Source: Flavobacteriales bacterium (GTDB taxonomy: Bacteria > Bacteroidota > Bacteroidia > Flavobacteriales_F > PHOS-HE28). Taken from it: 64,000 nucleotides of DNA. Location of the stretch: contig JADKCV010000002.1 in assembly GCA_016718655.1 (NCBI GenBank), positions 87,803 through 151,802 of the forward strand. Reading direction: 5' to 3'. Of this stretch, positions 10,989 to 16,735 are shown one piece after another (position 1 is the stretch's first letter; each line of letters begins with the position of its first letter). Made by a program: the position numbers and the translations under genes. Below the pieces are notes generated by a model. It saw only the letters and a program-made list of their open reading frames with translations, made no database searches and was not told the DNA's origin.

Positions 10989-11016
10989 GGAGGTCATGTT
11001 CCAATCCATCACCTCG
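10989..11016. repeat. REP-like hairpin GGAGGTCATGTTCCAATCCATCACCTCG
   Basis: Imperfect palindrome with stem GAGGTCATG / CATCACCTC and loop TTCCAATC. The same 25-28-mer recurs at 12131, 12346, 14331 and 16547. Confidence 0.7.
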
Positions 11017-11101
11017 TCATCTTGCCGCTCAGCGAACGCCAATGGATCAAGGCTTATGCAAATTGCTTCGGCTCCTGCCTGGGGGTCAAGTACCAATCAA
11101 T

Positions 11102-11818
11102 CCCCCGCTCCCGCGGATCTGCGATCCGTGGTTCCTTCATAGTTGACCTGTGCCGGAATGCTCCCGCCGATCTGTGATCGGCCATCCCTACCTTCGGCTT
11201 GGTGAGCCGCAACTACAAGATCTACGACCAAACGGACCTGCACTACCTGACCTATGCCACGGTCGGCTGGGTGGATGTATTGACACGGCCCGACTATAAG
11301 GACATCATCGTAGAGAGTTTGCGCCATTGCCAACGCGAAAAAGGTCTTGAACTCTTCGCGTGGTGCATCATGACCAACCACGTTCACTTGATCGCCCGTG
11401 CGAAAGCAGGATATCAGCTGCAGGACATCCTGCGCGACCACAAGAAGTTCACGTCGAAAGCACTGCTCAAAGCGGTGGAAGAGAACCCGCAGGAGAGCCG
11501 GCGCGAATGGTTGATGGATCATTTCAAGAGGGCGGATGGTGGAAACCAAGTGTGGCAGCATGACCTGCACCCGATCTGGTTACGACGTGCAGACATTATC
11601 CAGCAGAAGCTGCGTTACATCCATCGGAACCCGGTGGAGGAAGGCTTGGTGGAAGAGCCGCATCACTACCTGTACTCCAGCGCGCGCGATGAAGCGGGCC
11701 TACGAGGGATGCTAAAATTGGAAACGATCTGGGGTGAGGTGATCACAGATCACTGCGATAACTTAGATGCCGATGAATGACTGGAGACCACGGATCGCAG
11801 ATCCGCGGTAGCGGGGGA
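11102..11818 (+). mobile_element. RAYT / IS200-like element copy 1, bounded by 29-30 bp inverted repeats
   Basis: Left end CCCCGCTCCCGCGGATCTGCGATCCGTGG (11102-11131). Right end CCACGGATCGCAGATCCGCGGTAGCGGGGG (11789-11818), its reverse complement with one mismatch. The element encloses a Y1 HUH transposase gene. Confidence 0.7.
11199..11780 (+). CDS. REP-associated tyrosine transposase (RAYT; IS200/IS605-family Y1 HUH transposase)
   Basis: 193 aa. HUH motif in HVHLIARA. Catalytic Tyr context LRYIHRNPVEEGL. Size and motif spacing typical of TnpA_REP. Confidence 0.8.
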   Translation: MVSRNYKIYDQTDLHYLTYATVGWVDVLTRPDYKDIIVESLRHCQREKGLELFAWCIMTNHVHLIARAKAGYQLQDILRDHKKFTSKALLKAVEENPQESRREWLMDHFKRADGGNQVWQHDLHPIWLRRADIIQQKLRYIHRNPVEEGLVEEPHHYLYSSARDEAGLRGMLKLETIWGEVITDHCDNLDADE

Positions 11819-11824
11819 TAGATC

Positions 11825-12052
11825 ATGAAAAGAGAAGAAGCAATCGGACTTGCAGTAGAATGGCTGGCAGTTCAACGCGTGGAGCATGGTGCTTTCTTGT
11901 CAGCAGAGATGAGTACCTATGCTGATGAAGTATGGGAGATTGAGTTCGCACATAGAGGTTTGAATGCGCGAAGCTTGACTACTGACCCTTCCTCGAAAAT
12001 TGTTTTGGTTGAAGCAAAGACTGGTGTTATCCGGTTCTTTACGGTGATGTAG
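11825..12052 (+). CDS. hypothetical small protein (75 aa), low-GC orphan cassette between RAYT copies
   Basis: Intact ORF in an AT-richer stretch flanked by REP hairpins. No motif recognised. Confidence 0.3.
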   Translation: MKREEAIGLAVEWLAVQRVEHGAFLSAEMSTYADEVWEIEFAHRGLNARSLTTDPSSKIVLVEAKTGVIRFFTVM

Positions 12053-12130
12053 GGTAGCAGTGCAACTTCCACGAAACAACCGGAATAACCCCTGCAACTT
12101 CCACGAAGCAATCCAGCAACGTCCCTCGCA

Positions 12131-12158
12131 ACGGTCATGTTCCAATCCATCACCTCGG
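12131..12158. repeat. REP-like hairpin (ACGGTCATGTTCCAATCCATCACCTCGG)
   Basis: Same palindromic unit as 10989. Confidence 0.7.
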
Positions 12159-12262
12159 CCACCCGTAGCTCAACAACCGCCTGTGGATCAATGATTACAA
12201 AAGCTGCTGCAGTGACAGGCTTGATGATGGACAGTTGGGGCGAGGGGGGCGTTCGTCGTCCT

Positions 12263-12316
12263 GCGGAGTTTCCCGGAGGTCATTCCGGGCTTCGTGTTCC
12301 AAAGCATCACCTCGGC
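12263..12316. repeat. composite ~55-70 bp REP-related repeat (GTTTCCCGGAGGTCATTCCGGGCTTCGTGTTCCAAAGCATCACCTCGG)
   Basis: Shares the GTGTTCCAA.GCA.CACCTC core. Related copies at 14462-14512 and 16683-16735 with the same GGAGGTCATT(G/C)CG(G/A)GCTTCG leader. Confidence 0.6.
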
Positions 12317-12345
12317 CATTTTCACGCTTTTCAACATCGATCAAC

Positions 12346-12372
12346 GAGGTCATGTTCCAATCCATCACCTCG
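12346..12372. repeat. REP-like hairpin (GAGGTCATGTTCCAATCCATCACCTCG)
   Basis: Same unit. It lies 20 bp upstream of the left inverted repeat of RAYT copy 2. Confidence 0.7.
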
Positions 12373-14512: not shown

Positions 14513-14628
14513 TAACCTGCGCAGGGTGTCCTCCGCGATCGCCCCCCAAGGCAAGCCTCCGCCGGGTCTGTCCGCGCATTTGGCGGACGACCCTGCGGCC
14601 CAGAAGCCGCGACCGTTACCTTGTGGTG

Positions 14629-15168
14629 ATGTCCACCCGAAAGCTGCGCCAGAAAGATGGTGCCTTGTACTTCGCCACCTTCAGTTGCCACGAATGGGTG
14701 CCGCTGTTCTCCGAATTACAAAAGTGCGATCTCGTGTACAACTGGATGCGGATCGCGCATGGAAAGGGGTATCGTTTCTTCGGCTATGCCATCATGCCCA
14801 ACCACGCGCACTTCGTCATCCGCGTACCCGATGATGGGGCCATCAACACGATCCTGAGCAACGGCAAGCGGTTCATGGCCTACGAACTGATCGAACGGCT
14901 CAACATGGCAGGCAGATCAGACCTACTGCACCGCTTGCAAGCAGGTATCCGGCCATCAGACGCTGCACGTGGGCAGAAGCACCGCGTGTTCCAGCCCTCA
15001 ACGGATCTGGTGGAGCTCTTCAGTGGGACGATGATCGAGCAGAAATTACAATACATCCACGCCAACCCGGTGAGCAAGAAGTGGCGGCTGGCCGATGATG
15101 CGGTGGAGTACCCGCACTCCAGCTTCGCCTTCTATGTGCGTGGAGAGGATCGTGGAGCACCGCTATAA
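14629..15168 (+). CDS. divergent RAYT / IS200-like Y1 HUH transposase (third copy, ~179 aa)
   Basis: ATG at 14629 (MSTRKLRQKDGALYFATFSCHEW). HUH motif in HAHFVIRV. Catalytic Tyr context LQYIHANPVSKKW. About 30% identity to the two RAYT copies above. Confidence 0.7.
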   Translation: MSTRKLRQKDGALYFATFSCHEWVPLFSELQKCDLVYNWMRIAHGKGYRFFGYAIMPNHAHFVIRVPDDGAINTILSNGKRFMAYELIERLNMAGRSDLLHRLQAGIRPSDAARGQKHRVFQPSTDLVELFSGTMIEQKLQYIHANPVSKKWRLADDAVEYPHSSFAFYVRGEDRGAPL

Positions 15169-15355
15169 CCTTACCAGGAGTTCGGTTTCCTAGATGGCAA
15201 AGGAGCACCGTGGTGATAGGGCGGATGTGTAATTTGTGGGCGCAATGGGGATGACCTCGGATAGGGGTGGGTGTGCGCGGCTACGAGGCCGCAGGGGCCC
15301 CTCGTTCCTCGGGAGACCCTGCGGAGGTTTAAACTACATCCAACCGCCACTGGAG

Positions 15356-15952
15356 ATGAGATCATCAAATTCAAGAACACAATTGACGCGAAATATGCCG
15401 CACATTGGTTCAGGTAGTAAGACTCACAGCGTTGGGGCGATCCTCAGTTCCATTGACGCAGCCATTGGAGTGCTCCGAACTCTTGATTTTCCTTATCCGA
15501 TCAGCGACAACGCTGTGAATTTTTGCAGCAGATCACTAACAGAAAAGGACTTTTCCCCCTTCTTCCCAGAAGCAGAGGTGATCGCATTTTACAGCATATG
15601 CGACGGAATAAATTTACCTGACGTCCACAATGGCTATTTCATTCATCCATTGAAGAAGTTCACAATGGCCCAATCTCATTTGATCGCCCTGAACGAGGAT
15701 AACACGAAAATCAGCGAATTCTTCGTAGTTGGCTCAACCGGTGGTGGAAATTTGATTGCGATCGAACAGACCACGAATTCGACCTATTTACTACCAAACA
15801 ATCGAATTGAGAATGGTCTTTATTTTTCTTCGACAGCATCACCTATTCGTATTATCTCGCGCAATTATGCAGGATTTCTAAATCTCCTTCATGCGGATAT
15901 TGTGGCATTCTGCGAAGAAAAAGCCGGACATCGTTTCATAGATTCTCGATAG
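15356..15952 (+). CDS. SUKH-1 (Smi1/Knr4-family) immunity-type protein
   Basis: ATG at 15356 at the start of a clearly AT-richer block. C-terminal FFVVGSTGGGNLIAIEQTTNSTYLL resembles the SMI1_KNR4 signature (hydrophobic-G-x-GGG-hydrophobic-x-hydrophobic-D/E). Size ~200 aa. Sits in an orphan-cassette array downstream of a polymorphic toxin. Confidence 0.5.
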   Translation: MRSSNSRTQLTRNMPHIGSGSKTHSVGAILSSIDAAIGVLRTLDFPYPISDNAVNFCSRSLTEKDFSPFFPEAEVIAFYSICDGINLPDVHNGYFIHPLKKFTMAQSHLIALNEDNTKISEFFVVGSTGGGNLIAIEQTTNSTYLLPNNRIENGLYFSSTASPIRIISRNYAGFLNLLHADIVAFCEEKAGHRFIDSR

Positions 15953-16114
15953 AGTCGTTGCCCCACCTATCGCCTGGGCCTACTTCTTCCGTGCGGCCCA
16001 TCGAGTACCAAACCACGCGTAGCGGTGGGACCTTGTAGTCGGTAACAGGGTCTTCATGTCTGAAGACCCGAAGTACCTGATTTCCATCGAAAAAAAACAT
16101 CCGCTAACACGCAA

Positions 16115-16543
16115 ATGTTGCCCGAAAAGATCGCCTTGGAGGTCGAACACCTCAGGAAAAAAGCCGTGGAAGCAAGTAAAGAGGGGAATATGCAACTGGC
16201 CATTGACACGTTGAACGAAGCCTGGCTTCTTCTCCCAGAGCCTAGGACCGATCAAGCGGAGTCGTTCACCATCACGCAGTACCTGGTCTCACTCTTTCTG
16301 AAACACAAGGATCTTGAACAAGCTTATGTGATGGCCGATCGCCTTCAGAATTGCGACCTACAACGCCAGGATATCGGCGAGCGGGAGTTCCACTTGGGAA
16401 GGGTCTTATTTGAGCGGGACGATAAGGCTGAGGCTTTCCGGATCTTCCTCATCGCTGACCAGAAATCGGAAGGCCGGATCTGGCGCCTCTCGACAGCTCA
16501 GCTGTACAGGGAGTTCTTCCAATCTATGCGAAAAGGTCAATAG
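16115..16543 (+). CDS. hypothetical all-alpha (TPR-like) protein, candidate orphan immunity protein
   Basis: 142 aa, low GC. Followed 4 nt later by a REP hairpin (16547). Confidence 0.3.
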   Translation: MLPEKIALEVEHLRKKAVEASKEGNMQLAIDTLNEAWLLLPEPRTDQAESFTITQYLVSLFLKHKDLEQAYVMADRLQNCDLQRQDIGEREFHLGRVLFERDDKAEAFRIFLIADQKSEGRIWRLSTAQLYREFFQSMRKGQ

Positions 16544-16546
16544 TCC

Positions 16547-16572
16547 GATCGGTCATGTTCCAATCCATCACC
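16547..16572. repeat. REP-like hairpin (CGGTCATGTTCCAATCCATCACCTCC)
   Basis: Same unit as 10989. Confidence 0.7.
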
Positions 16573-16682
16573 TCCGCGTGCCGCAGCTCTACATCAGCCT
16601 GTGGTTCAATGCTTAATATGCGTGATGTGGTACCTGAGGCCATGAGGGTCAGATAGGGCTAGGGAGGCGTTCGGCATCCTTC

Positions 16683-16735
16683 GCCGCTTTCCGGAGGGCA
16701 TTGCGGGCTTTCGCGTACCGTTCCATCGCTCGCCG
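16683..16735. repeat. degenerate composite REP-related repeat
   Basis: CGCCGCTTTCCGGAGGGCATTGCGGGCTTTCGCGTACCGTTCCATCGCTCGCC is alignable to 12263 and 14462. Marks the island boundary next to the rplQ terminator. Confidence 0.45.

Follow-up and report, generated by a model that had tools for sequence, protein, structure and literature searches.

A 5.7-kb island of low GC content, lying between the stop codon of an RHS toxin gene and rplQ in a 64-kb stretch of Flavobacteriales DNA (the window), is punctuated by an imperfect palindrome of 26 nucleotides, the 26-mer. Our preferred reading, to which we assign a probability of roughly three in four, is that the 26-mer is the left terminal repeat of an insertion sequence (IS) of the IS1 family, and that modules ending at such IS1 tips have been stacked into an array. 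An earlier note on this DNA had taken the 26-mer for a repetitive extragenic palindromic (REP) hairpin, served by REP-associated tyrosine transposases (RAYTs) that would act as the recombination scaffold of an array of orphan cassettes. As an observation this was largely right; as an interpretation it was wrong on the repeat and, in part, right on the RAYT copies as substrates for recombination. Even under a modest reading of the data presented here, REP/RAYT is a tempting misannotation that is now corrected.

The repeat unit and its relation to IS1

Five copies of GAGGTCATG-N8-CATCACCTC lie on the plus strand of the window, at 10990, 12131, 12346, 14329 and 16549, with 0–3 mismatches, in agreement with the earlier note. 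Only 0.12 matches per window are expected by chance, and five copies were matched by none of 100 shuffled sequences. The copies share one orientation and are confined to 10.99–16.57 kb, with no copy elsewhere in the 64 kb, and the remaining 58 kb of the window holds no other repeat family. Contrary to the previous description, the 26-mer is not the whole repeat but only the 5′ tip of a unit of ~180 nt (~180–215 nt when related loci are included). The tip is motif A, ~24 nt long, GGT(C/A)ATGTTCCAA, and the unit ends in a related motif B, which reads GGTCAT, 11 nt, GTGTTCCAAAGCATCACCTC. A search with a profile of the whole unit (nhmmer) finds three full units and two 5′ stubs and thus only five copies, all of which begin at profile position 1:

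U1, 10992–11095, plus strand: 5′ stub, unit positions 1 to ~104 (nhmmer HMM positions 1–86); cut by copy 1 of the element RAYT1, whose inverted repeat forms the 3′ junction at 11096
U2, 12133–12313, plus strand: full unit (nhmmer 1–180, 169.6 bits), with motif A at 12133–12156 and motif B at 12265–12313
U3, 12348–12392, plus strand: 45-nt 5′ stub (nhmmer 1–47), cut by RAYT1 copy 2
U4, 14331–14511, plus strand: full unit (nhmmer 1–180), with the tip variant GGTAATG..CCTAG
U5, 16551–16731, plus strand: full unit (nhmmer 1–178), tip intact and motif B decayed; it abuts the rplQ terminator region and forms the distal boundary of the island

The three longer composite variants of the palindrome that had been noted are real (12265–12313, 14463–14511 and 16683–16731), the first being motif B of U2. 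The cassettes between the units are indeed low in GC, at 0.44–0.49 against ~0.60 in the flanks. Each copy had also been placed just after the stop codon of an open reading frame (ORF). This holds for three of the five, which begin within 7 nt of a stop (imm155 at 10986, ORF173 at 14329 and ORF142 at 16543), but not for the other two: the 12131 copy starts 80 nt past ORF75, an ORF of 75 aa, and the 12346 copy has no preceding ORF and lies 30 nt past the previous unit. The data support the repeat as a mark of cassette ends. Within the 80-nt gap between ORF75 and U2, a 19-nt direct repeat, TGCAACTTCCACGAA(A/G)CAA, occurs twice (12061–12111) with a start-to-start spacing of 32 nt.

Between the units of the window, positions 1–24 are 92–100% identical, whereas positions 25 to the end are 49–67% identical. 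The nearest relatives of individual units are found in other genomes (related loci are designated by L numbers): U2 is 83% identical to the unit of L002 over positions 25 to the end, and U4 is 94% identical to that of L007, or 94–95% when compared with the unit that precedes an intact IS1 transposase gene (tnp) there. Given these relationships and the divergence of the interiors, the window units are old and polyphyletic rather than local duplications, with their tip held constant. The contrast between the tip and the rest of the three full-length window units does not depend on the method of detection, and loci found through their transposase show tip identities of 92% (L039) and 83% (L053) against 42–50% for the rest. 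In more than 12 contexts, conservation sets in exactly at GGT(C/A)ATG and the left flanks are unrelated. Every truncated copy retains the 5′ tip, with extents of 28–104 nt, and the whole-unit profile search found no fragment consisting of the 3′ part only. Tips stacked directly on stubs are seen in L002 (stubs of 34 and 58–60 nt), L011 and L061 (18 nt). In the window, U2 is followed by a weakly aligned 34-nt tail to 12347, a spacing near the 37–38 nt expected for the tnp start codon; possibly this tail reaches the former tnp start and is fused to the U3 tip at the shared GGTCATG.

Very probably the unit forms the left end of an element of the IS1 family, because in related genomes it is followed directly by a gene for an IS1-family DDE transposase. 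This is the arrangement in L002, L005/L058, L007, L039 and L053, and diverged, recognisable versions of the unit occupy the same place in L043, L048, L060 and L061. The unit stands upstream of the transposase gene wherever that gene is present, and many of the unit-bearing genomes have no RAYT in the parts that were fetched. The transposase scores 142 bits against NCBIfam transpos_IS1 (cutoff 100 bits) and reaches 4.8e-21 against Pfam DDE_Tnp_IS1, and all aligned transposases contain xVDE, TDG and IER, which we take to be the IS1 catalytic motifs. L039, L053, L058, L043 and L048 were fetched through the transposase protein and so carry no motif bias. The 19-mer core was sought in collections of genomes and metagenomes, whose species representatives do not include the source genome, and ~17 genuine loci emerged; those that are named all belong to Flavobacteriales metagenome-assembled genomes (MAGs), and the remaining matches are chance occurrences inside coding sequence. 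With so few loci, most of which lie downstream of the end of an RHS core where enough flank is available, the exact 19-mer is not the generic genome-wide REP that the earlier note had allowed for.

The tip GGTAATG-TTCCAA resembles the ends of Escherichia coli IS1A, GGTGATGCTGCCAAC and GGTAATGACTCCAAC (annotated IS1A); an alignment of the left tip with the IS1A ends has 14 matches over 22 positions and one gap. The unit or the whole element is found in unrelated contexts, as would be expected of a mobile element: beside RHS and STAND genes (L002, L007, L039 and L042), beside rplQ (L005/L058 and the window), beside RNR/ParE (L053) and beside a peptidase S46 gene and a response regulator (L048).

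Stacking of IS1 ends can be seen in E. coli itself. In NZ_CP048330.1 (L079 209–241, ~2925508–2925540) a 33-nt stub of the left inverted repeat of IS1A stands directly before the full IS1A, inside the ATTTTTG target duplication, and the stacking is the same as in the Flavobacteriales arrays. In the top three listed E. coli matches the IS1 left-end query was split into two pieces, which is consistent with such a stub.

The punctuated design of the array is shared by lineages that are 46–47% identical (L061 and L060). In L061, from Ascidiimonas aurantiaca, a 221-nt left end occurs four times and the tip five times in one orientation; the units lie between orphan modules of RHS core and toxin C-terminal (CT) region, and the last unit abuts the tnp gene. 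In L060, which belongs to the complete genome CP034120.1, GGTARTGTTATYARTCATCAC is found three times with at most 1 mismatch and once more in a weaker form. All of these tip copies overlap ORF stops; there are two copies of a 190-nt left end, and the genome has a single occurrence of the exact transposase. L005/L058 carry a unit, a tnp gene and a STAND remnant beside rplQ, at the position that is occupied in the window by U5.

Changes in the array and competing explanations

On our reading, the unit is the complete left end of the element and comprises motif A, motif B and the tnp leader; the window locus has lost the transposase and retains five solo left ends, each marking the 3′ end of a module that formerly ended at an IS tip. 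Modules of the form (CT remnant)–immunity gene–IS1 tip were probably imported from different donors and then stacked. The tip junctions and the stacked stubs would have arisen from IS1-type reactions at the tip, such as adjacent deletion or the formation of circles or cointegrates, and IS1-type deletions would trim the DNA as far as the last immunity gene still needed and so leave the tip beside stop codons. Growth and exchange of the array would proceed by homologous recombination through the RHS core, the unit, RAYT or REP, and gain or loss of this kind has been seen once.

That single case depends on the RAYT elements of the island, whose interspersion among the cassettes had been reported correctly. 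Y1/RAYT genes lie at 11199–11780 and 12489–13070, and a RAYT-like gene at 14629–15168:

11096–11823, plus strand: RAYT1 copy 1, with its ORF at 11199–11780 and terminal inverted repeats of 37 nt, 95% complementary, at 11096–11132 and 11787–11823
12393–13107, plus strand: RAYT1 copy 2, with its ORF at 12489–13070; ~97% identical to copy 1, the two differing at 18 sites over 715 nt
14585–15332, plus strand: RAYT3 element, with its ORF at 14629–15168 and inverted REPs at 14591–14611 and 15276–15327

The two RAYT1 ORFs score 97.5 bits each against NCBIfam REP_Tyr_transpos (NF047646, cutoff 80 bits) and are RAYTs by the criterion of that model; the RAYT3 ORF scores 60.5 bits, below the cutoff, and is therefore only RAYT-like. 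The 26-mer is not the REP of these genes, as each element has terminal inverted repeats of its own (30–37 nt), which are of the CCGCGGATCTGYGATCCGTGG type for RAYT1 and of the form GCCGCAGGG..CCCTGCGG for RAYT3, neither of them equal to the 26-mer. The RAYT1 elements cut unit stubs, and RAYT elements in general interrupt or abut units; they are elements independent of the unit and, on our reading, later colonists of the island.

RAYT1, ~728 nt long, resembles a small multi-copy mobile element, with copies or fragments that are 92–100% identical in several RHS arrays (L011 11974–12711 and 13316–13370; L007 5970–6038; L058 6030–6092), a pattern unlike that of a single-copy domesticated RAYT with dispersed REPs. 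For RAYT3, a 74% identical element is present in L048 together with five copies of the RAYT3-type REP, GCCGCAGGG...CCCTGCGGAGGTTTA, within 12.6 kb (1186–1412, 4176–4217, 4900–4953 and 11118–11172). Exact-sequence look-ups of RAYT1 and ORF142 from the window returned no record, probably owing to differing start-codon calls.

A strain variant, L062, which is 99.4–99.7% identical to the window, differs from it by an exact segment of 1290 nt and is without the 3′ part of a RAYT1, ORF75, U2, U3 and the 5′ part of a RAYT1. Its single RAYT1 is a perfect chimera: at all 8 differing sites up to position 249 it agrees with copy 1, and at all 10 from position 324 onwards it agrees with copy 2, which shows that the difference arose by homologous recombination within RAYT1. 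Deletion and circle integration predict the same chimera, so the direction of the 1290-nt change is not polarised. L062 is a clean natural case of the gain or loss of a cassette through recombination between RAYT copies. To this extent the proposal that RAYT/REP sequences form a recombination scaffold stands, the RAYT copies having served once in that capacity; the part of it that made the 26-mer a REP does not.

Other comparisons reveal different junctions. L007 has a U4-like unit whose tip meets RAYT1 at position 69, and the rest of that RAYT1 is missing, which is the footprint expected of an adjacent deletion at an IS end; adjacent deletions are a common type of IS-caused rearrangement (PMC11708052). 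L034 and L020 have 97% identical backgrounds and differ by one swapped cassette, of which a RAYT3-type REP forms the left breakpoint. YD-repeat-like coding fragments (FAYDPLNRLLT in L007, ~6040–6095 on the minus strand; FAGEPLNRP in L020, 8191–8260) separate the last small ORF from the unit or the RAYT, and may be RHS leftovers that serve as recombination points.

Several observations weigh against our reading. The breakpoints of the L034/L020 swap fall at the RAYT3-type REP and a YD-like fragment, not at the tip. In both the window and L011, a RAYT element occupies every junction between a stub and a cassette, with no resumption of the unit beyond the RAYT, and this pattern is not predicted by the model. 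Because many loci were retrieved by an exact match to the tip, the apparent conservation of the tip is biased, and short stubs without a tip would escape detection. A convincing right inverted repeat was not found: L061 and L060 have no right-end copy of the tip at up to 3 mismatches, and the candidates for a right repeat, which are weak, overlap the tnp stop codon as in IS1 (the IS1A transposase stop also lies inside the right end). No target-site duplication of 8–9 bp was seen at L007, at L053 or at the window copies. Adjacent deletion or recombination would be expected to leave no such duplication (PMC11708052), so that its absence does not exclude membership of IS1. Finally, the 64-kb window contains no IS1 transposase; its five copies are therefore solo left ends, and any action of a transposase on them must be in trans. 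The L007 locus, whose metagenome also contains the 99.6% identical contig L032, may be a source of this kind.

A more ambitious explanation would make the IS1-family transposase the recombinase of a dedicated system for RHS toxin–immunity arrays, with the tip as an attC-type site at the cassette end and a resident, selected transposase lineage in Flavobacteriia that excises, prunes or captures CT–immunity cassettes. We consider this rather unlikely. The position of the locus is constant, in that the order RHS gene (~2500 aa), small ORFs, unit, tnp and a convergent STAND NTPase gene is found in L002, L007, L039 and L042–47 with transposases that are 64–85% identical, and the syntenic tnp copies have synonymous divergence (dS) above 1 with a ratio of nonsynonymous to synonymous divergence (dN/dS) of 0.08–0.22. 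Long contigs have the element in one place per genome, as does a complete 4.6-Mb genome, and an RHS-type gene or fragment is located upstream in 6 of the 9 contexts found through the transposase. The catalytic motifs in all aligned transposases, the punctuated architecture of the lineages of L061 and L060 and the conservation of the tip in old, diverged solo copies also favour such a system. However, active selfish ISs are under purifying selection as well, and extra IS copies may be hidden in MAG assemblies. No event among close strains has both breakpoints at tips, and the gain or loss and the swap that were observed used RAYT, REP or YD homology. In the lineage of L020, L008, L016 and L027, which keeps the array, the unit and the STAND gene, tnp has decayed to a remnant of ~150 nt, and it is absent from the window. 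Moreover, some relatives are ordinary insertions, such as L072 between mnmE and ompH, or have no RHS gene upstream (L053 and L058).

At the other extreme, the unit may be a dead IS remnant that provides nothing more than portable homology on the 3′ side, the 5′ arm being the RHS core. All of the dynamics would then be RecA-type recombination and random deletion, free of transposase chemistry and of any selected function. This is likewise rather unlikely. It fits the directly documented recombination between repeats, the location of the cassette-swap breakpoints in repeats, the lack of tnp in the window and the decay of the unit interiors. It leaves unexplained the exact tip junctions with unrelated flanks, the lack of 3′-only fragments and the presence, in full-length units, of 24 nt at 92–100% identity beside a remainder at 49–67%, and the stacked stubs of 18–60 nt are too short for RecA.

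It is very unlikely that the unit is a transcribed regulatory element, that is, a terminator, an mRNA stabiliser or a small RNA acting for the upstream immunity genes. The position directly after stop codons and the single orientation would suit such a role. Against it, Rfam finds only two tRNAs in the whole window and no family that matches the unit, RNAalifold on 10 units and both strands gives covariation terms of only −0.49 and −0.36 kcal/mol and supports no helix outside the invariant tip, and no intrinsic terminator or terminator-like T tract was found at the tip. Coding sequence was also considered and rejected, because of an in-frame stop in the 14329 copy and 1-nt indels in the alignment.

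Least likely of all is that the 26-mer is a REP hairpin recognised by RAYT (Y1/HUH) transposases that catalyse cassette rearrangement: one arm of the imperfect palindrome does covary between lineages (GTCATG..CATCAC against GTAACG..CGTCAC in L048 and L002), and a RAYT stands beside unit stubs in every case seen (three in the window, two in L011), but the 26-mer folds weakly (−3.4 kcal/mol as single-stranded DNA, z = −2.1, and only −0.6 kcal/mol, z = +0.2, for the 14329 copy) whereas the RAYT1 terminal hairpins are different and stronger (−7.6 and −6.8 kcal/mol, z about −3, and confined to RAYT ends within the 64 kb), the unit is itself interrupted by RAYT elements, the copies have a single orientation and are not paired as REPINs, and the fetched parts of L002, L039, L042, L060 and L061 have the unit without any RAYT.

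Cassettes, flanks and neighbouring genes

The genes around and between the units are as follows:

3003–10505, plus strand: RHS/YD toxin gene of 2500 aa (ORF list), with the end of the Rhs-associated core at ~9597 and the C-terminal toxin region at ~9598–10505
10519–10986, plus strand: imm155, immunity candidate of 155 aa in the cognate position directly after the toxin
11825–12052, plus strand: ORF75, orphan cassette ORF (ORF list), absent from L062
13202–13438, plus strand: ORF78, orphan cassette ORF (ORF list)
13514–13799, plus strand: probable RHS toxin C-terminal remnant, the 3′ part of ORF152 (13341–13799)
13808–14329, plus strand: ORF173, probable orphan immunity gene and partner of the toxin remnant, its stop 1 nt before U4
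15356–15952, plus strand: ORF198, orphan cassette ORF, also called as 235 aa
16115–16543, plus strand: ORF142, the last cassette ORF (ORF list)
16828–17316, minus strand: rplQ, the conserved flank, at the end of the ribosomal protein/rpoA operon

The RHS assignment of the toxin gene follows from a match to TIGR03696 (Rhs_assc_core, 9.6e-19, aa 456–532 of the ORF at 8001–10505), and the L062 protein, 99.4% identical to the RHS protein of the window, has SpvB, TcdB_mid and FG-GAP matches. The rplQ product is 95% identical to that of L005 (tblastn) and has a Pfam Ribosomal_L17 match in L062. No Pfam or NCBIfam match was found for the small cassette ORFs, so that the labels of immunity gene and toxin remnant are positional.

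The description of the island as an array of orphan modules is borne out, since the cassettes include an orphan toxin-CT remnant in addition to small ORFs. The segment 13514–14321, which covers the C-terminus of ORF152 and ORF173, is homologous to a cassette of an L020-type RHS array; in L034, where the homologue lies in the array of such a locus, the remnant (13514–13799) is 67% identical at the nucleotide level and 69% at the amino acid level, and the counterpart of ORF173 is 58% identical in amino acid sequence. The further suggestion that the usual RHS-core homology is replaced by another mechanism here did not hold, as orphans in the related arrays L061, L060 and L048 still carry core fragments.

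A homologue of imm155 that is 78% identical occurs in L001 and is followed there too by a repeat tip or stub. In this locus (34–1074 and ~1780–1887) the imm155 homologue and a 54-nt unit stub form a cassette between two diverged 3′ ends of an acyl-CoA-reductase-like gene, with no RHS gene nearby, which suggests additive import of a cassette at the 3′ end of a housekeeping gene. ORF198 has two clusters of homologues among 5.8e9 proteins and occurs in at least 24 contigs (40 index blocks); the variants that were inspected, L062–L071, are all at least 99% identical to the window.

The STAND NTPase (~1256 aa; weak AAA_16, nSTAND3 and nSTAND5 matches) that is convergent with the IS1 tnp is a conserved neighbour of the RHS locus at 45–70% identity (L002 129–3899; L007 1313–5083; L020 8712–12431; L039 6715–10479; L042 6671–10444). 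Genomes rank in the same way by transposase divergence and by STAND divergence. The STAND gene is not in the window, and in L005/L058 it is reduced to a remnant of ~29 codons.

Comparison with known systems

The element shares with IS1 (E. coli IS1A) a DDE_Tnp_IS1 transposase with an N-terminal zinc-finger/helix-turn-helix part, a terminal repeat that starts GGT(N)ATG..CCAA, a tnp stop at or near the candidate right end and stacked left-end stubs. It differs from IS1 in having a transposase encoded by one ORF, with no frameshift, and a long left end (~215 nt) with two related motifs; there is apparently one copy per genome, fixed beside RHS loci and under purifying selection, and the cassette array is punctuated by solo left ends that all point the same way. 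In the translocatable units of IS26 and in Tn9, with its direct copies of IS1, directly repeated ISs surround passenger segments. The likeness is that one IS family in direct orientation punctuates short passengers, and that recombination and IS deletion reshape the array; here, however, only left-end stubs lie between the cassettes, with at most one tnp gene per array, and the passengers are toxin-CT/immunity modules rather than resistance genes. We know of no conservative reaction of the IS26 type for IS1.

The rAID-1 and polyimmunity loci of Bacteroidales are arrays of co-directional orphan immunity genes of low GC content with repetitive intergenic sequences (10.1101/471110; PMC3482391). 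They resemble the present arrays in their low-GC co-directional genes and in having one conserved recombinase-type gene at one end, but there the gene lies at the 5′ end and encodes a XerD-like tyrosine recombinase, whereas here it lies at the 3′ end (absent from the window) and encodes an IS1-family DDE transposase, and the array here is directly attached to the RHS toxin gene. Membership of rAID-1 requires a 5′ XerD-like recombinase more than 44% identical to BF9343_RS08045, followed by at least two co-directional low-GC genes; in the window such genes are present, but there is no recombinase gene between the RHS gene and the array, which therefore falls outside rAID-1.

In classical Rhs/CDI orphan arrays and in the type VI secretion immunity arrays of Vibrio cholerae, orphans lie downstream and homologous recombination is the main driver (PMC5361080; PMC3150448). 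There, as here, toxin-CT fragments and immunity genes that have been displaced collect downstream of an active toxin, but these systems have no specific repeat at the cassette ends, and, in contrast to Rhs/CDI arrays, the orphans of the window are without RHS-core fragments, each ending at an IS1 tip. A tblastn search with the core end matched only the main gene in the window; such fragments do occur in L061, L060 and L048, as noted above. Nor does the island qualify as an integron, which is defined by an IntI tyrosine recombinase with attI and attC sites (R″-L″/L′-R′ with a GTTRRRY core): no ORF of at least 60 aa between 10.5 and 16.8 kb matches a tyrosine recombinase, no attC site was found and the repeat has no GTTRRRY core. 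REP/RAYT systems (REPINs) share with the island the RAYT genes with inverted hairpin repeats, and in L048 the dispersed RAYT3-type REPs. They differ in that the 26-mer is not the REP of the RAYTs, since it does not flank a RAYT, has a weak hairpin, forms no inverted pairs and is restricted to one island, and in that RAYT1 is multi-copy and has a documented role as a substrate for homologous recombination.

Turnover of orphan toxin and immunity cassettes is still mostly ascribed to homology-facilitated recombination at the conserved toxin core. To our knowledge, a candidate dedicated recombinase has been put forward only for the rAID-1 and polyimmunity loci of Bacteroidales. A limited literature search found no description of an association between IS1 and RHS loci, and our data hint at an undescribed link between one lineage of IS1 transposases and RHS toxin-cassette arrays. 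The presence of this lineage at the ends of RHS arrays, the conserved tip at cassette ends and the recurrence of both below 50% identity lead to the hypothesis that a DDE transposase shapes toxin–immunity repertoires, which can be tested in cultivable Flavobacteriia such as Ascidiimonas aurantiaca and the strain of CP034120.1. The array described here is a variant of IS-bounded or recombinase-associated cassette arrays, and if the transposase does act as a dedicated cassette recombinase it would represent a third, DDE-based solution to the building of cassette arrays, beside integrons (IntI/attC) and the XerD-associated rAID-1 loci.

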